DNA of 57,608 nt. Origin: an uncultured Candidatus Saccharibacteria bacterium. Its GTDB lineage: Bacteria > Patescibacteriota > Minisyncoccia > Phycocordibacterales > UBA10002. Of this stretch, positions 6,654 to 30,496 are shown in pieces. The notes below the pieces were generated by a model. That model was not told the origin of the DNA and searched no databases. It saw only the letters and a list, made by a program, of their open reading frames with translations. A program made the translations under genes and the position numbers. Numbering within the stretch: position 1 is the first letter of the stretch; each line of letters opens with the position of its first letter. The DNA lies in contig CAYJWA010000001.1 in the NCBI GenBank assembly GCA_964373775.1, positions 1-57,608 on the forward strand, in the 5' to 3' direction.

Positions 6654-7559
6654 TTACCGCCGCTTCTCGCCGATAAAATATATAAAAGCAGATACTTCTA
6701 TGGAACGGGGAAAGAGATTGAAAAGCAGGTCAAGGACTCGGAGCGGCGAGAGTATCACCATAAATAAATATGTTGCGAGGTTATAGACCGCTTCGGATAT
6801 AAGTGAAAACGGCAGAGCCAGAAAATACATTAAAAATGTAACGAGAGCTGACGCGGGTCCGCCAAGGACCCCCATTTTTATAAGCGTGAAGTCATAGAAC
6901 TTCTGCTGCAAACCCTCGTGTGTCAGTCGTATGTAGTCATTGGGCGAAGCGTGGAAAGGCATGATGAACGGGATGCTCACATAGACAAATCCTCCCGGCT
7001 TTACCACGCGGTACATCTCTCGTATGGCCTGTTCCGCGTCAGGCGTGTGTTCTATGGTGGATTCGGAGATGAGCATGTCAAGCGAATTGTCTTTGAACGG
7101 AAGCGCGGCGGCATCGGCAACGATGTCCACATTCTTAAACGGAAAGATATCGAGATTGATGACCGCGGGATGCACATTGGTGATGCCCGAGCCGACATTA
7201 ATGATGATTTTATCCTTCGCCCGTTCCCCGTAGAGTTGCTCAATGGCTTTTTTCGGCCTCTGCCCAAAGTAAGAAACACTTCCGATCGCATAGGTGAGAA
7301 AGACAAAAAAGGCGGGCCACTTTTTCACCAGCGATTTGAAGCGGTTCACGAATTGCTTCGCTTCCGCGTCGTATTTTCGTATGCTCTCATCCGCGTTCTT
7401 GGTGAAGTAGAGCACGGAGTCTCGAACAGGATATTCAATGAAGCATCCATCGCAGGTAAGTTTTTGCTCCCGAATCGAAAGCGAACTTCTCCTACAAGCA
7501 GGGCAGAGGAGGAGGGGAAGAAGTTTATCTATCAGTGTTTTCTTATCTTCTCTATACAT
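6654..7559 (-). CDS. membrane-anchored SAM methyltransferase with an N-terminal Trm112-like zinc ribbon
   Basis: LLCPACRR...LTCDGCFIEYPVRDSVLYF forms the zinc ribbon. IINVGSGI and DMLISESTIEH match Methyltransf_11. Hydrophobic segments lie mid-protein and at the C-terminus. Confidence 0.6.
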   Translation of the reverse strand: MYREDKKTLIDKLLPLLLCPACRRSSLSIREQKLTCDGCFIEYPVRDSVLYFTKNADESIRKYDAEAKQFVNRFKSLVKKWPAFFVFLTYAIGSVSYFGQRPKKAIEQLYGERAKDKIIINVGSGITNVHPAVINLDIFPFKNVDIVADAAALPFKDNSLDMLISESTIEHTPDAEQAIREMYRVVKPGGFVYVSIPFIMPFHASPNDYIRLTHEGLQQKFYDFTLIKMGVLGGPASALVTFLMYFLALPFSLISEAVYNLATYLFMVILSPLRVLDLLFNLFPRSIEVSAFIYFIGEKRR

Positions 7560-12642: not shown

Positions 12643-12817
12643 AAAGAAAAATCCCAAATCACAAGCACCAAATTACAAACAATATCCAATTCCGAAATTC
12701 CAATTGCCGAAATTGATTCTGGGTTCTGAATTTGAAAGTTCGAATTTGTTTGTGGTTTGTCTGGCTTTGCCAGATCTCGCAAAGCGAGAGAATTTGTAAT
12801 TTGTGATTTAATTTTCT
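12643..12817. repeat. AT-rich imperfect inverted-repeat intergenic element (copy B), inverted relative to copy A
   Basis: The 36-mer at 12648..12683 and the 16-mer at 12739..12754 match copy A in reverse complement. It contains two GC mini-hairpins: ctggc-ttt-gccag (12761..12773) and tctcgc-aaa-gcgaga (12775..12789). Confidence 0.8.
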
Positions 12818-24889: not shown

Positions 24890-26026
24890 ATGTCCGAAAA
24901 AATAATTAAGGAAGATATAGCGACCATCGCCAAGGGTTTGGGGAAAGATGCCAAAAAATTAGAGGGCAAAACCGTTTTTCTTAGTGGAGGCGGAGGATTT
25001 TTGGGAAAGTATATCGTTGGCACGATCTGCTACTTGAACGATAATATACTCTCGAAACCCTGTCGCGTCATATCCGTTGATAACTTTATCACCGGTAAAG
25101 CTCATCCACACTTCAATTACAAAGGGCGTCATGACGTTCTTGAGGTCTGGGGCGACATTACGGAGCGGCTTCCGATCCGCGAGTCTCTTCACTACATTAT
25201 TCACGCCGCGGGGCTCGCTTCGCCGGTCTACTACAAAAAATATCCTCTTGAAACTATTGACAGTGCGGTTGCCGGAGTCAGGCATCTCTTGGAGCTCGCC
25301 AGAAAAAATAAAGAAACCATAGAAGGGTTCCTATTTTTCAGTTCTAGCGAAATCTACGGTGACCCAGATGAAAAGGCGGTGCCGACGCCCGAAACCTACC
25401 ACGGATATGTTTCTTCCGTAGGTCCCCGCGCCTGTTATGATGAATCAAAGCGTCTGGGTGAAACCATTACCACTATCTATTTCGAGCAATTTGGAATACC
25501 GGGCAAAATTGTCAGACAGTTTAACGTGTTCGGCCCCGGCATGGACCACAATGACCGTAGAGTGGTTCCGATGTTCGCGTACAAGGCGCTTAACAAAGAG
25601 TCAATTCCGGTGCACGGCGATGGTCGCCAGACCAGGACATTCTGCTACATCACCGACGCCATCACCGGTTTTTTAAAGGTGCTTCTGCTGGGCAAGCCAG
25701 GCCATGCCTACAATATCGGCAACAAAGACAATGAGATTTCCATGCGCGACTTAGCGCGACTCTTCGTAGACATTGAAGGCGGCGGTGCTTCATTTGAGCT
25801 CATACCCTATCCTGAAACGTATCCCGCGGGAGAGCCCCAAAGACGCTGTCCCGACCTCTCAAAAGCCGAGCTACACCTCGCATACAAAGCGGCCGTGTCT
25901 CTCAAGAAAGGGTTGGCTCGCTTCATTGATTGGTGCCGAAGCGAAGAAATGTATGTTGGAAAGACGCACACAACGAAAACCAAAGTAAAATTTCAACCGA
26001 AGCGAAAAACTAGAAAAACTCGCTAA
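24890..26026 (+). CDS. extended SDR, UDP-glucuronate decarboxylase / 4,6-dehydratase-like
   Basis: VFLSGGGGFLGKY, SSSEIYG, YDESKRLGE and GDGRQTRTFCYITD. Confidence 0.6.
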   Translation: MSEKIIKEDIATIAKGLGKDAKKLEGKTVFLSGGGGFLGKYIVGTICYLNDNILSKPCRVISVDNFITGKAHPHFNYKGRHDVLEVWGDITERLPIRESLHYIIHAAGLASPVYYKKYPLETIDSAVAGVRHLLELARKNKETIEGFLFFSSSEIYGDPDEKAVPTPETYHGYVSSVGPRACYDESKRLGETITTIYFEQFGIPGKIVRQFNVFGPGMDHNDRRVVPMFAYKALNKESIPVHGDGRQTRTFCYITDAITGFLKVLLLGKPGHAYNIGNKDNEISMRDLARLFVDIEGGGASFELIPYPETYPAGEPQRRCPDLSKAELHLAYKAAVSLKKGLARFIDWCRSEEMYVGKTHTTKTKVKFQPKRKTRKTR

Positions 26027-26949
26027 TGAAAACTCTTGCGCTAATCGGTGTCGGCAAATGGGGTAAGAATATAGTTTCAACTTTGGAAACAATTCCCGAC
26101 GCCAATTTAAAATATCTATCCGCTCGCGACCTAGAATCGCTGTCTTCGTATGGAGAGAAACATGAAAAGGTATCTGACTGGCATGTACTTCTAAAAAAGA
26201 AAGATCTTGATGCGGTACTCATCGCTACCCCTCCCTCCCCGCACTGCATGCTCATAGAATCAGCCCTCAAAGCCGGCAAGCATGTTTTTGTGGAGAAACC
26301 GATGGTGCTTTCTTCGGATGAGGCAAAACGAATTCAAAAGCTCGTTGCTTCAACGGGGAACGTTTTCATGGTGGGCTATCAGTACCTCTTTAACGACAAT
26401 ATACGCTACATAAAAAAGGAAATTGAGAAGGGAACACTTGGGAAGATTCTCTCCGTTAAGAGCGAACATATCGTAAGTCCCTCGCGCCCAGATGTGAACA
26501 TCTTCTGGGATGCCGGACCACACCCGCTCTCGGTGTTTCAATATTTATTCAATCCTCAAAATTTGATTTCCGCCGAAGGAAGCATCAAACATGACAGAGC
26601 TTCCATACAACTAAAATTTTCCGCCAGAGGCGGATCCGCCTCTGGCGGAGAAAACGCTTCGTCACTCGAAATTATCGCCGCTTGTTTCGGGCAAACCAAA
26701 GTTAGAAAACTGACCGTTACGGGGGAAAAAGCGACTGCGGTCTTGGACGAAACTTTGGAAAGAAATAAACTCGCTATTCTCAAAGACGGAACCGTCTGTT
26801 ACCCGGAAATTGATTCAAGAGAATCGCTTCGAAACGAACTGGAACATTTCATCCGTTGCATTCAAACCGGCTCGACACCGCTCACTGATATTCATTTCGG
26901 CTGTCGGATAACCGAGTGGCTTGAAACCATTTCAAAGCTACTTACATAG
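26026..26949 (+). CDS. Gfo/Idh/MocA-family oxidoreductase carrying an in-frame palindromic insert
   Basis: MKTLALIGVGKWGKN (Rossmann fold) and HVFVEKPM. The start overlaps the upstream stop (TAATG). Residues SARGGSASGGE are encoded by the palindrome at 26617..26654. Confidence 0.7.
   Translation: MKTLALIGVGKWGKNIVSTLETIPDANLKYLSARDLESLSSYGEKHEKVSDWHVLLKKKDLDAVLIATPPSPHCMLIESALKAGKHVFVEKPMVLSSDEAKRIQKLVASTGNVFMVGYQYLFNDNIRYIKKEIEKGTLGKILSVKSEHIVSPSRPDVNIFWDAGPHPLSVFQYLFNPQNLISAEGSIKHDRASIQLKFSARGGSASGGENASSLEIIAACFGQTKVRKLTVTGEKATAVLDETLERNKLAILKDGTVCYPEIDSRESLRNELEHFIRCIQTGSTPLTDIHFGCRITEWLETISKLLT
26617..26654. repeat. 38-nt GC-rich palindromic element, copy 1 (inside a CDS, in frame)
   Basis: ttttCCGCCAGAGGCGGATCCGCCTCTGGCGGagaaaa. 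The core at 26621..26648 is a perfect 28-nt palindrome. A second copy lies at 28500..28546. Confidence 0.85.
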
Positions 26950-26993
26950 GGTTACCCTTGTATTTTAAGTGAACAAGCCGGGCATAAAAATCC

Positions 26994-27022
26994 TTGACAT
27001 CTTGTTGCTAGTATGATAGACT
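26994..27022 (+). promoter_or_regulatory. sigma70-like promoter TTGACA-17-(TGa)TAGACT
   Basis: TTGACA at 26994..26999, a 17-nt spacer ending in tga, and TAGACT at 27017..27022. Confidence 0.4.
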
Positions 27023-27114
27023 ACGGACAGTGAAGTTCACAATCCAAAAATCAAATAAGACCTAAGAAAAAGCTCAATACAGACACGGAAACGGGTACAG
27101 AAAGTTTCTGTAAG

Positions 27115-27651
27115 TTGCTAAGTACGCCGCCGAGAAGAGACAGGGGATTCGTCAAGGAACGCAGGTTTGAAAAAGTTTCCACTGCCCATTTGCTGGCAGT
27201 GTTGCTTCCTCCACTCGACGAAATCAAAGACGAGCTCGAGGCCCGCGGTCCAGAAATTGTTTGGAAAGTTATTGCAAGACTGAGACGTTTCCAGGACACA
27301 CAGTATGGCTATTACCCTTGGAGCGTCAAGAAAGATTATTGGGAGGTTTTTCTGCTCCTCTCGGTGATTCTGGAAAATGCCCGACCAAAACACGCCAGGA
27401 CACTTGCGGGAATGCTCTCCTGGGAAAGCATGGTCGGTATGAGTTATGGTGGAATGATCGTGGAAACACTCGAAAAGATCGGCAACAGTTCGGTTGTTCG
27501 TCTACTCAGGGAACATCGAAGAATGCTCAAGGCATTCTATCGGAAAAACCCTTCCAGTGATCGTGAGTCAGAGAAAGAGACACCGACTGCGAGATCATAT
27601 CGTTTGAAGGGTATCAAAAGGGCCATTAAGGCCTGTGATCAAAGAGAATGA
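27115..27651 (+). CDS. hypothetical protein
   Basis: The only long ORF between the promoter at 26994 and the terminator at 27717. It has a TTG start, no SD and no recognisable motif. Confidence 0.35.
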   Translation: MLSTPPRRDRGFVKERRFEKVSTAHLLAVLLPPLDEIKDELEARGPEIVWKVIARLRRFQDTQYGYYPWSVKKDYWEVFLLLSVILENARPKHARTLAGMLSWESMVGMSYGGMIVETLEKIGNSSVVRLLREHRRMLKAFYRKNPSSDRESEKETPTARSYRLKGIKRAIKACDQRE

Positions 27652-27716
27652 AAAACGAAACCGTCTGCCTAGGTCTTTCTGGTAGCAAAGCGCTGATCCT
27701 TCGAAGCCATAGCGAG

Positions 27717-27760
27717 CCGGTAGTTTTGCCAACGTTTAGAAGCAAAACTACCGGTTTTTT
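27717..27760 (+). terminator. rho-independent terminator
   Basis: ccggtagttttgc (27717..27729) pairs with gcaaaactaccgg (27742..27754), followed by TTTTTT. Confidence 0.8.
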
Positions 27761-27798
27761 ATAAACCAAGAATCGAAAAAATTGTACTAAATAGAAAA

Positions 27799-27821
27799 GG
27801 GCCGTGAACTGGTCACGGCCC
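27799..27821 (-). terminator. rho-independent terminator for the minus-strand cupin gene
   Basis: gggccgtga-actgg-tcacggccc, followed on the minus strand by TTTTCTATTT. Confidence 0.7.
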
Positions 27822-27865
27822 TGCGAAAACTGAAAAGAGAAACTATTTTACTATTGATGCCGCGT

Positions 27866-28252
27866 TCATTCCCGGCACTCCGGCACTGAAGGCCAACGCA
27901 CGGTCATACCAAATGATGGCGCTTCGATAACCCGGACTTGCTTTTTGCAACCTGGCGGAAGGATAACATAGTCCCGGTTGGAGCCCTTGAGTTCAATAGC
28001 CTGGGGAACAAAAGCACCATTCCCGTCGGGGACTTCAAGCATGAGCCTAAGCGTACCCTTTTCCACTATGATGAACTCGGTACCCCCGAACTCTTTCTGC
28101 CCGTAGTTCGGCTGGCTATCGTAGTGCCAGATTTTAATCTCTAAGTCTTTGCTGTTGCCGAGACCTTCCGGGATAAAGTACCCCACCACCCATCCTTTTC
28201 TTGCCGATGCGGCTGCGTCTGCCGCGTTTCCAACGATAATTTCCTGAAGCAC
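27866..28252 (-). CDS. cupin-fold protein (unknown function), monocistronic
   Basis: 128 aa with a beta-barrel-like pattern (GTEFIIVEKGTLRLMLE...YVILPPG). GTG start, with GGAGG 4 nt upstream. It has its own promoter and terminator. Confidence 0.5.
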   Translation of the reverse strand: MLQEIIVGNAADAAASARKGWVVGYFIPEGLGNSKDLEIKIWHYDSQPNYGQKEFGGTEFIIVEKGTLRLMLEVPDGNGAFVPQAIELKGSNRDYVILPPGCKKQVRVIEAPSFGMTVRWPSVPECRE

Positions 28253-28280
28253 GAGACCTCCATGGCTGAGATTAGACGAT

Positions 28281-28317
28281 GATCAGCGAAAATGTTCCCA
28301 AGGAACGTTTATTGATC
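28281..28317 (-). promoter_or_regulatory. 37-nt palindrome at the predicted start of the cupin transcript (operator or 5'-UTR hairpin)
   Basis: gatcagcgaaaatgttcc-caa-ggaacgtttattgatc. The outer pairing is gatca/tgatc and the inner stem is 9 bp with one G.T pair. Confidence 0.45.
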
Positions 28318-28324
28318 TCCCTAC

Positions 28325-28352
28325 ATTATACACATATTTGCTAGCCTGTCAA
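28325..28352 (-). promoter_or_regulatory. consensus sigma70 promoter TTGACA-16-TATAAT (minus strand)
   Basis: The reverse complement of 28347..28352 is TTGACA, and the reverse complement of 28325..28330 is TATAAT. Confidence 0.6.
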
Positions 28353-28364
28353 GCTTTCGTGCGG

Positions 28365-28582
28365 TAACTATCCACACCTCTTAATTCTCCCTTTACTAAA
28401 GGGAGTGGCCATAGGCCGAGGGATTTTTCTGATTCATAATAAATACTCTCTATGGGCGAGCTCGCCCCGAGCTTTAGCCGCCCTCGAAGACTCGGGCACC
28501 TCCTTTTCCGCCGAAGGCGGATCCGCCTTTGGCGGAAGAAAAGGAGGAATTAAGCCATTTTTCGGGAGGTGTGGACACTTAC
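28365..28582. mobile_element. MITE-like element (16-bp TIRs, 9-bp TSD) carrying palindrome copy 2
   Basis: TIR taactatccacacctc (28365..28380) matches gaggtgtggacactta (28566..28581) at 14/16. Direct repeats TTCGTGCGG lie at 28356..28364 and 28583..28591. Confidence 0.7.
28500..28546. repeat. GC-rich palindromic element, copy 2 (intergenic, nested in the MITE)
   Basis: ctccttttCCGCCGAAGGCGGATCCGCCTTTGGCGGaagaaaaggag. The core at 28508..28535 differs from copy 1 by paired substitutions. Confidence 0.85.
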
Positions 28583-28756
28583 TTCGTGCGGGGAAACGAT
28601 TCGTATTCTCATTCGCCTTTTTCCTTTATTATTTTTCTTCATAACGCTTAATTTTACCTTAAGCGTTGCATTTCATTGTTGAACTAGCCGTAGTCTCGTG
28701 TACGCTTTGGAGTACGTGTGATATGCTAGAAAACGTTTTTATAATATCCAAGGGAC

Positions 28757-30496
28757 ATGTCACACAGCGAACGTATCGCTTATTTTATTCACGAACATAA
28801 ATCGGCACTTTTAAGCGCGCTTGTTGCCGCGGTGGTGGTCTTTCTGCCCGCGTTCCTCTATCCGTTCATGGCGGATTCCTATAAAGGAATCAATGTCGGC
28901 AATTTTGGCGTTGATGAGTTTCATTATCTTTCCATGGGGAAGGAATTGTTAGAAGGGAATGGTTTGGGAAATTTGTTTTTGCGTGAAGGTAAAGATCAAG
29001 GTAACCCCGAGCAGAAATATACTCCGTATCTTGTGCTTCCCGTCAAATGGTTCGGGTTGGAGGATACCATCACGATTGTTACCTTGACCACTGTCTACGG
29101 AATGATTGGCGTCTTTATATTAGTGCTCCTCATTTATTTGTTCGCGTTGCAACTCTCTCACGATAAGCAACTTTCTCTTATCTCTGCGCTTTTTGTTGTG
29201 CTCGGCTATAATTTTCTGACGAACTATCTTCCATTTTATTTTGTTAACCTTTATTCGCGTCCTCTTATCCCGCTAACGCCTGCGCTCGGAGTATTCCTAT
29301 ATTTGAATTTATTATTGAAGAGCTTACAGAGTCCAAAGCGAAGATATGTATGGTTGGCCGGCATTGCTTTCGGGTTGTCATTTTATATTTATTTTTATGC
29401 GTGGACCTTTATCTCGGTAGTATCGGTTATTCTTTCTGCGTTTTATTTCTTTATTAAAAAAGAAACCGAGCAGTGCAAAAAAATACTTCAGATAACACTT
29501 ATTGGTTTTCTTCTGGGTTCCGTTGAACTCTTCCTTTTGTTTTCATTTTCCGCTACCGATATGGGCAAACAGATTTTGCTGTATGGGGGAGGGACATTAA
29601 CCAATGTTTTTACTATCGTGAAGATTTCATGGTTCGCGCTTATGTTCTCTCTTGTTTATTGGTATTGGCATCGAGACGACCCGAATATACCGATTATGCT
29701 CGCGCTTATTCTTTCCGGCATTGTGGCTATTAACCAGGGGGTTATCACAGGAAGAGAATTTCAACGGTTTCACTATTTCTGGTATTTCATCTTGCCAACG
29801 GTCACCGTTTTTGGGTTGTATATGACATGGAAGATTATCCAATCGGAGAAACTTCGGAAATTGCTGTTCTATTTTATTTTTACAGCGGCGTTTGTTAACG
29901 GCGCCGTTCAATCATACATAGGAACTCTTACCACACTCCCTATGAAAAACCACATGCAGTACTATCAGCCGATTATAGAGTACCTTAATCGAGAAGAAAG
30001 CCCAGCGGTTATTCTAGGGTCCGATCAGTTTAACGAAGGATTGTTTACAACCTACACCAAACACGATTTATTTTGGCAACACCAAGCGTTGGTGTATAAC
30101 ACCTCCATCTTTACGCTTCGCGACGCTCTGTTCGTGTACCTCTATTTGAATAGAGAATCGCGTGATGACATTCTCGCGTTTGTGCGAGATTCAACGACAC
30201 CAAATAATGATTATAAAGATCTGTATACCCAACTCCGAAGATATTACACGGATCCAACTTCCCCTGGAAAAGAGCGACTTTCCGTAAAAGAGTTTGATGA
30301 GAGAATCGTATTTGACTATAATGTGTTCAGACAAAATCCGGACAATGTTAAAGATGTGTTGCGAGCGCACGGGGTAAACTATGTGGTATGGGATAAAAGT
30401 GTAAATCCAGAGTGGGACCTTTCTCCTATATCAGGTCTTACGACACTTGTTTCCAGCAATGATATTTATCTATATTCCATAGAGTATGGAAATTAA
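28757..30496 (+). CDS. large polytopic membrane protein, putative GT-C-fold glycosyltransferase
   Basis: A paralog of 21063..22751 along its whole length (NVGNFGVDEFHYLSMGKELLEGNGLGN ... VVWDKSVNPEWDL). Confidence 0.55.
   Translation: MSHSERIAYFIHEHKSALLSALVAAVVVFLPAFLYPFMADSYKGINVGNFGVDEFHYLSMGKELLEGNGLGNLFLREGKDQGNPEQKYTPYLVLPVKWFGLEDTITIVTLTTVYGMIGVFILVLLIYLFALQLSHDKQLSLISALFVVLGYNFLTNYLPFYFVNLYSRPLIPLTPALGVFLYLNLLLKSLQSPKRRYVWLAGIAFGLSFYIYFYAWTFISVVSVILSAFYFFIKKETEQCKKILQITLIGFLLGSVELFLLFSFSATDMGKQILLYGGGTLTNVFTIVKISWFALMFSLVYWYWHRDDPNIPIMLALILSGIVAINQGVITGREFQRFHYFWYFILPTVTVFGLYMTWKIIQSEKLRKLLFYFIFTAAFVNGAVQSYIGTLTTLPMKNHMQYYQPIIEYLNREESPAVILGSDQFNEGLFTTYTKHDLFWQHQALVYNTSIFTLRDALFVYLYLNRESRDDILAFVRDSTTPNNDYKDLYTQLRRYYTDPTSPGKERLSVKEFDERIVFDYNVFRQNPDNVKDVLRAHGVNYVVWDKSVNPEWDLSPISGLTTLVSSNDIYLYSIEYGN

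Follow-up and report, generated by a model that had tools for sequence, protein, structure and literature searches.

A 30-nucleotide double hairpin, probably mobile, lies in frame within an oxidoreductase gene of an uncultured bacterium and recurs across many phyla

Introduction

The 57,608-nt stretch of DNA examined in this study (referred to below as the window; contig CAYJWA010000001.1 of an uncultured Candidatus Saccharibacteria bacterium) contains a GC-rich palindrome inside a gene for an oxidoreductase of the Gfo/Idh/MocA family. This palindrome was noticed in a first-pass annotation made from the sequence, and the question raised by the locus is how such an element came to lie within a coding region without disrupting it. 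The results described below indicated that the palindrome is a 30-nt unit consisting of two 15-nt hairpins, that it was added to the gene as a precise insertion and that it is one of a family of such units. We consider it probable that this unit is a non-autonomous mobile double hairpin which was inserted into, and has been tolerated by, the oxidoreductase gene, and which is mobilized in trans, with a GIY-YIG nuclease as the best candidate for the mobilizer.

Results

Insertion of the element into the oxidoreductase gene

The segment ttttCCGCCAGAGGCGGATCCGCCTCTGGCGGagaaaa was found at positions 26617 to 26654, where the first-pass annotation had placed it. A perfect palindrome was present within this segment, as claimed, but had a length of 30 nt (26620 to 26649; TCCGCCAGAGGCGGA|TCCGCCTCTGGCGGA) and not 28 nt. 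This palindrome, to which no strand is assigned, is referred to as copy 1 of the element and has the structure TCCGCC-AGA-GGCGGA / TCCGCC-TCT-GGCGGA. With a GC content of ∼73%, copy 1 is GC rich, as described; the surrounding locus, said to be AT leaning, is so only mildly (local GC, 0.46). The open reading frame (ORF) that contains the palindrome (26026 to 26949, plus strand) encodes a protein of 307 amino acids, and its assignment to the Gfo/Idh/MocA family was upheld by matches to GFO_IDH_MocA (PF01408; E value, 1.2e-21) and PF02894, by homologs with 42 to 74% identity and by an AlphaFold2 model. Copy 1 encodes the sequence SARGGSASGG, a Gly/Ser-rich stretch that leaves the frame unbroken; due to the 30-nt length and the absence of a stop codon in the frame used, the host gene stays open.

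An alignment with orthologs had been proposed as a check on whether these residues are an insertion. SARGGSASGG was absent from 24 aligned homologs (42 to 74% identity) as an exact, single and clean 10-residue gap located between the invariant Phe198 and a conserved ENA motif, and the nearest homologs of the host protein were 297 to 300 amino acids long. The contig of the closest ortholog (L123) is syntenic with the window and has an empty site at the DNA level, with CGA TTC^GAA AAC GCT in L123 corresponding to AAA TTT-(30 nt)-GAA AAC GCT in the window. Comparison of these junctions indicated that 30 nt had been gained and that no base had been duplicated or lost. The TTT at 26617 to 26619 (plus strand), which is the codon of Phe198, and the GAAAA at 26650 to 26654 (plus strand), which belongs to the Glu-Asn codons, are therefore the two halves of a target sequence that is older than the insertion, and the inserted unit is 30 nt in length. 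For the 5′ half, this assignment is based on the alignment, the TTC of the ortholog and the T-rich positions −3 to −1 of 125 copies of the element (see below); for the 3′ half, it is based on the GAA AAC that directly follows TTC in the ortholog and the A-rich positions +1 to +3 of the same 125 copies.

A structural model of the host protein, also proposed in the first-pass annotation as a means of placing the insert, was obtained with AlphaFold2 (pLDDT, 94; pTM, 0.91). The insert, residues 199 to 208, was modeled between the strands formed by residues 191 to 198 and 213 to 219, and the only segment of the model with a pLDDT of less than 50 (residues 203 to 209) overlapped it. The position between two strands and the low-pLDDT segment indicated that a beta-hairpin turn has been enlarged by the insert, which hence falls in a surface loop of the model. 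The neighborhood of the host gene is a sugar modification cluster with genes for a C-methyltransferase, an epimerase/dehydratase and glycosyltransferases.

A family of elements in many phyla

The pattern CCGCCNNNGGCGGATCCGCCNNNGGCGG was used to scan a collection of species-representative genomes, and at least 120 loci were detected; the counts of 125 or 127 copies, and those of hosts and frames, given below were drawn from among the matches listed. Many further copies were thus present, both coding and intergenic, as the first-pass annotation had anticipated. Its suggestion of a lineage-specific insertion did not hold for the family, as the element spans many phyla and not one lineage. By label, the matches listed comprised ∼70 loci from Patescibacteria lineages, ∼11 loci from Omnitrophota, ∼13 loci from PVC lineages and ∼13 loci from "Gammaproteobacteria" bins, with a few each from Ignavibacteria, Bacteroidota, Chloroflexota, Deltaproteobacteria, Firmicutes, Firestonebacteria, Margulisiibacteriota and Auribacterota. 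The host protein in L031 carries a Por_Secre_tail (type IX secretion system sorting) domain, the distribution of which presumably agrees with the Ignavibacteriota label of this locus. These results demonstrated that the 30-nt family is spread over many uncultured bacterial phyla.

As all loci among the matches listed were metagenome-assembled genomes (MAGs), the possibility of an assembly, sequencing or cloning artifact, such as a BamHI Gly-Ser linker or an adapter chimera, was considered. The presence of GGATCC inside the element and of encoded Gly-Ser would fit such an origin, as would the literature matches to GGCGGATCCGCC, all of which were apparently unrelated cloning papers. However, the carriers were produced by several assemblers and included contigs of up to 1.6 Mb, among them long-read-based MAG contigs, which argues against an assembly artifact. 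The variable loops, covarying stems, specific insertion sites and frame selection described below likewise speak against this explanation, to which we assign almost no probability.

Neither of two candidate vectors was supported. A viral vector was rejected because 2.9 million viral contigs gave 2 matches and 50,697 phage records gave none, and a plasmid vector was rejected because plasmids yielded chance partial matches only. In two MAGs, one from Kiritimatiellae and one from Verrucomicrobia, the core was found inside a longer repeat of ∼80 to 180 nt with the arrangement CATAGGAATTTT-core-ACAATCCGTCTTTGTTGTCATTCCG (L006, 4563 to 4647 and 6384 to 6468; L053; L003; L029), which suggests composite elements built on the core.

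Conservation of two 15-nt hairpins

The bases flanking the searched 28-mer, which were not forced by the pattern, were T in 120 and A in 122 of 125 copies, and this near constancy indicated that the unit is 30 nt long. Across the 125 copies, the unit consisted of T-CCGCC-NRA-GGCGG-A followed by T-CCGCC-TYN-GGCGG-A and, because of this symmetry, reads alike on both strands. In order to distinguish between one long hairpin and two short ones, covariation was analyzed in 14 sequences, of which 4 were first found by pattern. The two-hairpin fold had 99.4% of cells paired, with 7 of 12 pairs changed on both sides, and was matched in 0 of 500 shuffles. For a single long hairpin, 83.7% of cells were paired versus 83.9% with shuffled partners. 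The compensated stem variants comprised CAGCC/GGCTG, GCGCC/GGCGC, CTGCC/GGCAG, CCAGC/GCTGG, CCTCC/GGAGG and an outer C-G pair, and were obtained from degenerate copies and from copies recognized by position alone within the tRNA fragments described below.

The loops, in contrast to the stems, did not covary. Pair 7-22 was of the Watson-Crick type in 31 of the 125 copies, compared to 50 expected under independence. A single long palindromic hairpin was thus rejected as the conserved structure, the loops being without covariation and the long helix no better than one with shuffled partners. The middle loop bases (core positions 7 and 22) were in fact anticorrelated, with G opposite T and A opposite C commoner than Watson-Crick combinations, so that perfect 30-nt palindromes such as copy 1 are underrepresented in the family. 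This deficit may result in part from codon selection (Ser at the second variable codon) or from avoidance of long perfect palindromes. We concluded that both folds are physically available and that evolution conserves only the double hairpin. Two arrays of units were observed: in L139 (1380 to 1440), a second hairpin pair is nested within the TTT loop of an older unit, and in L027 (7416 to 7478), four to five units lie in series in one anticodon loop.

Translation and frame selection of genic copies

A total of 63 of 127 copies lay within open stretches of at least 150 codons. The frame was S-A-x-G-G-S-A-x-G-G for 57 of these genic copies, Arg rich for 4 and Pro rich for 2. As target preference could produce such a bias, the codon phase of the preferred target hexamers was examined in the same coding DNA, where phase 0 accounted for 40 to 47% and phase 2 for 42 to 55%. 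The excess of frame 0 over target phase was highly significant (binomial P = 3e-13), and a frame bias due to target preference was thereby ruled out. The use of one frame by 57 of 63 copies, beyond target preference, indicated that the insert is translated and that the peptide is selected. Furthermore, the ratio of Ser to hydrophobic residues at the second variable codon was 39:17 in coding copies versus 19:27 in clearly noncoding copies (P = 0.005). Stop codons at the first variable codon occurred in noncoding copies only, an observation that is not independent since the coding set was defined by uninterrupted frames. Either orientation of the element yields the same type of peptide. Overall, these data demonstrated translation of the element with selection of both frame and codons.

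The host proteins were unrelated, with 99 Pfam families represented in 62 proteins. They included DnaG, RpoB, RpoC, GyrA, RF1, class I and class II tRNA synthetases, ALAD and TsaD, and further hosts were adenylosuccinate synthetase, FolD, a Mur ligase and TIM. The essential nature of host genes, together with the potential for a stable hairpin in the mRNA, raised the possibility that the insert is excised or skipped in the course of expression, either as a mini-intron or by bypassing as for the byps of yeast mitochondria, leaving the protein unaltered. Frame would not matter to such a process, whereas the genic copies showed the strong frame preference described above, and the selection on amino acids at the loop codons also argues against removal from the RNA or bypass by the ribosome. 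Beyond TTY/RAA, the flanks showed no conserved signals for take-off or landing. We therefore regard removal or bypass as very improbable.

Target sites and empty sites

The element was preceded by T-T-Y and followed by R/C-A-A, with both flanks conserved together, giving an insertion rule of TTY^RAA. No target duplication was found in four kinds of empty-site comparison, nor were there general direct repeats in the flanks. The copies in ALAD and TsaD each corresponded to an exact 10-residue gap relative to solved structures, and the copy in RF1 was situated in a variable turn. Intact tRNA genes located beside their own interrupted copies provided a further set of empty sites, CTTG^AAAACCGC for tRNA-Ser(UGA) and CCCTTTT^AAGGAG for tRNA-Lys, and the empty T-loop site in 3′ fragments of tRNAs was GGGTTC^AAATCCC. 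Taken together with the junction in the oxidoreductase gene, these comparisons demonstrated a precise and scarless insertion of 30 nt at TTY^RAA.

Some intergenic copies were centered in longer palindromes, representing the loop of an older hairpin. A hairpin loop context as a general requirement of the target was rejected, as there was no enrichment over control TTY^RAA sites. In L062 (2440 to 2520), L038 (4720 to 4800), L064 (7340 to 7420), L108 (6190 to 6270), L063 and L036, intergenic copies were bordered by short tandem or low-complexity direct repeats, with AAGATTGAAGATTAA on each side of the copy in L062. Such tracts are either preferred landing sites or repeats made locally.

Further double hairpins in the window

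One of the copies located in the loop of an older hairpin is copy 2 of the window. The first-pass annotation had reported an intergenic occurrence of the element at 28500 to 28546; this copy exists and is intergenic, but those limits include flanking sequence, and the 30-nt core, again without an assigned strand, spans 28507 to 28536. Copy 2 reads TCCGCC-GAA-GGCGGA / TCCGCC-TTT-GGCGGA, differs from copy 1 at three loop positions and is situated between divergent ORFs at 27866 to 28252 (minus strand) and 28757 to 30496 (plus strand). An inverted-repeat search and an analysis of the outer stem detected the arms of an outer inverted repeat around it, CCTCCTTT at 28499 to 28506 on the left and AAAGGAGG at 28540 to 28547 on the right (neither with a strand). 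Without the element, the site would read CCTCCTTT-AGA-AAAGGAGG, which indicated insertion into the loop of an older hairpin. Copy 2 lies near the right end of a region of the window (26950 to 28750) in which ∼1.65 kb is not present in the syntenic L123, whose spacer is only ∼150 nt. The two ORFs in this segment, 27115 to 27651 (plus strand) and 27866 to 28252 (minus strand), had no match in Pfam or NCBIfam.

Copies 1 and 2 were the top two inverted repeats of the window. The sequence CCGCCNNNGGCGG, with up to 1 mismatch, occurred 7 times in the window compared to 1.5 expected, and 7 occurrences were reached in 0 of 100 shuffles. A generic scan for 15+15 double hairpins detected 3 in the window and 0 in 20 window shuffles. 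The third, TCTGGC-TTT-GCCAGA / TCTCGC-AAA-GCGAGA (12760 to 12789; no strand; intergenic), has the 15+15 layout with other stems and a reversed loop order and lies between direct repeats of GAATTTGT. It may belong to a related family.

The location of copy 2 in a divergent promoter region, together with the strong conservation of the stems next to nearly saturated loops, could be taken to mean that the element is retained because it serves the host, as a protein-binding or regulatory hairpin (a terminator or an mRNA stabilizer) or as a useful flexible linker, and is not selfish. An intrinsic terminator was examined and rejected: the element has a T-run on its 5′ side and an A-run on its 3′ side on both strands, a polarity opposite to that of such a terminator, and copy 1 is in a coding sequence while copy 2 is between divergent genes. 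Other observations also conflict with retention for a function. The hosts and positions are unrelated, the orthologs work without the element, Rfam 15 gave no match at the gathering threshold anywhere in the window, and conservation of the stems is equally expected if only intact copies spawn new ones. A host function is hence considered unlikely in the extreme, though less so than removal from the transcript.

Association with GIY-YIG/tRNA cassettes

All-versus-all clustering of 1,788 ORFs from element loci produced no recurrent transposase and, apart from common sugar epimerases and ribosomal proteins, only one family close to the copies, a small GIY-YIG protein. The structure of the element called for separate consideration of a Y1 enzyme: the two inverted GC-rich hairpins, the lack of target duplication, the T-rich 5′ flank and the purine-rich NRA triloops, which are unusually stable in DNA, would all suit a REP/REPIN-like or IS200/IS605-derived element that is moved as single-stranded hairpins by an HUH Y1 transposase (RAYT or TnpA) whose gene lies at another site in the genome. 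A search by phmmer with IS200, IS608 and RAYT queries detected one IS200-type TnpA in 912 kb, the hairpins around which were unrelated, and no Y1 family recurred near copies. In addition, both flanks of the element are conserved together and not the 5′ flank alone, half of the copies are intragenic and there is no GTAG or CGTC tag (PMC3733652). Mobilization by a Y1 transposase thus appeared improbable.

In L027 (7375 to 7835) and L117 (6500 to 6990), the GIY-YIG gene has a duplicated 5′ part of tRNA-Ser(UGA) on one side and an intact copy of this tRNA on the other, and hairpin units are present inside the anticodon loop of the upstream fragment. In L117, an unrelated hairpin, CCCCGCA-TAACCTGCGGTT-TGCGGGG (6930 to 6975, minus strand), breaks the D-arm of the fragment that bears the double hairpin in its anticodon loop. 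Searching metagenome contigs with the protein alone yielded 80 relatives. In L124 to L205, the gene start is mostly at 1501. The genes encode proteins of 80 to 95 amino acids of the UPF0213/YhbQ type, for which the next-nearest solved relatives are the SLX1 structure-specific endonucleases; very few of the homologs carry taxon names. A tRNA gene (Ser, Arg, Lys, Gln, Asn, Ala, Gly, Leu or Met) was detected at +220 to +300 behind 49 of 73 relatives, and most of these 49 cassettes had an exact repeat of tRNA positions 1 to 21/36 upstream. The layout of the cassette is accordingly a 5′ tRNA fragment, the ORF and an intact tRNA that starts at or overlaps the 3′ end of the ORF. It has the appearance of a homing-type cassette, one which splits a tRNA and also restores it.

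The 15-nt unit was found 20 to 120 nt upstream of the start codon in 19 of 71 relatives. Within the 160 nt upstream, generic double hairpins had a density of 1.42 per kb, ∼200-fold higher than the 0.007 per kb in the remainder of these loci. Inserts of at least 10 nt interrupted 36 of 40 recognizable upstream tRNA fragments and were mostly hairpin forming, although some low-scoring fragment alignments gave nonpalindromic segments that are perhaps alignment artifacts. These inserts were positioned in the D-loop (about 21/22) or in the anticodon loop (about 35 to 37). As they are enclosed on both sides by sequence derived from Ser, Lys, Gln or Asn tRNAs, several independent origins are indicated. 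These results demonstrated a recurrent and strong spatial association of the hairpins with mini GIY-YIG/tRNA cassettes.

Several cassettes had, beyond the intact tRNA, a 3′ tRNA fragment with a near-identical double hairpin at the same anticodon loop position (L138, 1758 to 2100, in tandem; L177; L125; L170; L197). With hairpin-bearing fragments on both sides, the ORF and the intact tRNA are bracketed by direct repeats of ∼40 to 50 nt composed of an anticodon stem-loop and its insert. Candidates for the origin of this bracketing are staggered cuts at the base of the stem-loop, recombination between hairpin-bearing loops, and repeated cleavage and repair. In Arg, Met and Asn cassettes, a perfect 20-nt palindrome, CCTGCCTGCCGGCAGGCAGG, was observed at D-loop position 21/22 of the upstream fragment, ∼60 to 90 nt before the GIY-YIG start (L141, L144, L146, L148, L161 and L168, with variants in L145, L149 and L182); a different nuclease clade may have this palindrome as its cognate repeat. 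Where copies lay in tRNA sequence, this was always a truncated fragment with an intact gene next to it. A tRNA intron was rejected as an explanation, since no dispersed copy was found in a full-length tRNA after in silico removal of the element.

The association could also arise if the element is mobile but its mobilizer is independent of the GIY-YIG cassette, with hairpins gathering in neutral pseudo-tRNA fragments whose loops match the target (TTC^RAAT, TTG^AAAA). Insertion in the fragments may even be favored, for example by breaking a direct repeat that could delete the cassette. Several observations suit an independent mobilizer: copies occur in T-loops of tRNA 3′ fragments without a nearby GIY-YIG gene (L089, L107, L050), the general target TTY^RAA needs no stem-loop, 118 of 122 element loci lack a GIY-YIG gene, and the distinct palindromes of other cassette clades could track host lineage and not nuclease clade. 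However, the local concentration of 200-fold and independent insertions in at least four tRNA types are not easily explained by target preference alone if the elements are low in copy number, and no other candidate recurs near copies. An independent mobilizer is thus possible but doubtful.

Discussion

The GIY-YIG nuclease is the leading candidate for the mobilizer, on the evidence of gene arrangement. In the sequence of events that we favor, the element entered the oxidoreductase gene at the junction of TTY and GAAAA, with no target base duplicated or deleted, and SARGGSASGG is translated as a flexible 10-residue Gly/Ser loop that is tolerated at a beta-hairpin turn. Genic copies in general survive almost only in the SAxGGSAxGG frame. 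The element would be mobilized in trans, with the tiny YhbQ/SLX1-like GIY-YIG nuclease as the putative mobilizer or at least as a functional partner, and the tRNA-targeting cassette may have served as the vehicle between phyla. We propose that targeting of conserved tRNA genes by the cassette would account for the cross-phylum spread.

A number of points weigh against this interpretation. The window contains the element, but searches of its 57.6 kb for tRNA and GIY-YIG genes found neither, and a GIY-YIG gene was present in only 4 of 122 element-bearing loci. No dispersed copy was detected in the ∼10 kb beside two cassettes (L204, L205), a stretch too short for the expected density. Among the matches listed, exact copies seem few per genome, with one each in two 1.6-Mb contigs. 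The candidate nuclease alone offers no clear route to the insertion of a defined 30-mer, and the pseudo-tRNA loops could be simply neutral, preferred targets. With respect to structure, nearest-neighbor folding favored the long hairpin where both units share stems, as in both copies of the window. Host taxonomy consisted of database labels that were spot-checked only.

A more far-reaching version of the nuclease proposal, which we put forward only tentatively, is that of a selfish system in which the nuclease, carried in a cassette that splits a tRNA and supplies a replacement (perhaps a hostage), would cut TTY^RAA sites resembling tRNA loops genome-wide, seed them with 30-nt plugs and cross between phyla. 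The plugs would have been selected for a harmless Gly/Ser loop in either orientation and could therefore last within essential genes.

The element resembles REP/REPIN sequences, SDRs, Rickettsia palindromic elements (RPEs) and organellar double-hairpin elements, yet in each case it departs from the features that define the group. The first-pass annotation had drawn an analogy with RPEs, which are palindromic, ∼100 to 150 nt in length and confined to Rickettsia and which are found in frame in coding genes, including conserved ones, and translated as an extra surface peptide. The present element is likewise palindromic, in frame and translated in conserved genes, and the analogy is apt with respect to an in-frame palindromic insertion with further copies. 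However, a GC-rich double mini-hairpin of 30 nt with a distribution across many phyla is not a member of the RPEs. The SDRs of cyanobacteria, reportedly described by Elhai et al. in 2008 (a study cited in PMC3116915 and PMC2884548), are said to be 21 to 27 nt in length and mobile looking, with some forming hairpins, with nested insertions and with no known transposase. The element shares with them its tiny size, nesting and lack of a known transposase but differs in sequence and in host range, SDRs being found in cyanobacteria only. We know of no report of a frame-locked SDR insertion in essential genes or of a link between SDRs and a nuclease/tRNA cassette. Miniature inverted-repeat transposable elements, which combine terminal inverted repeats with a target site duplication, differ from the element in that the latter has no such duplication.

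REP sequences of Proteobacteria are short (20 to 40 nt), GC-rich hairpin repeats, with REPINs being inverted pairs of such hairpins, and the nuclease gene is flanked by cognate, clade-specific repeats (PMC3116915, PMC3733652). The two 15-nt hairpins place the element in the 20- to 40-nt size class, and the proposed logic of a repeat-flanked nuclease is similar. REPs are defined by a GTAG or CGTC tetranucleotide at one end (PMC3733652), whereas the element lacks this tag and has the ends T-CCGCC...GGCGG-A with T-rich and A-rich flanks. Nor is the element extragenic, given the 63 of 127 copies in long ORFs and the intragenic position of copy 1. Its copy number, among the matches listed, looks far lower, the same stems occur across phyla, and the associated gene is not a neighboring Y1/HUH RAYT but a GIY-YIG nuclease gene in a tRNA locus. 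Organellar double-hairpin elements, GC clusters and repetitive hairpin-forming elements of fungal, sponge and algal mitochondria also consist of adjacent GC-rich hairpins that spread and occasionally enter coding regions (PMC2800124). They share with the element the two adjacent GC-rich hairpins in AT-richer DNA but are confined to organelles and have another length and sequence, and no nuclease gene is described for them in the sources compared. For the cassette, the closest parallel among the systems compared is T4 SegB, a GIY-YIG homing endonuclease whose gene lies among tRNA genes and which recognizes conserved stem-loop sequence of tRNAs (PMC2330249). SegB comes from a phage, is larger and has a DNA-binding part, whereas the putative nucleases of the cassettes are cellular, of 80 to 95 amino acids and of the YhbQ/SLX1 type, and come with a duplicated 5′ part of a tRNA and hairpin inserts. 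In a literature search of incomplete coverage, so that an earlier description is possible, the element, the CCTGCCTGCCGGCAGGCAGG palindrome and the GIY-YIG/tRNA cassette were found in no publication.

At 30 nt, the element would rank among the smallest mobile elements known and among the few with the same sequence across many bacterial phyla. Core enzymes of uncultured lineages, including RNA polymerase, gyrase, a release factor and tRNA synthetases, absorb identical 10-residue loops, and these loops affect alignments, phylogenomics and structure prediction for genomes of the candidate phyla radiation and Omnitrophota. A 30-nt, stop-free unit which encodes the same benign peptide on both strands and inserts without a scar at TTY^RAA is a possible natural device for in-frame tagging if the enzyme is identified. 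The link to a YhbQ/UPF0213-type GIY-YIG protein suggests a concrete role for a widespread protein family and a new route for a selfish gene into tRNA loci and, if true, could make the element and the cassette a new kind of selfish system.

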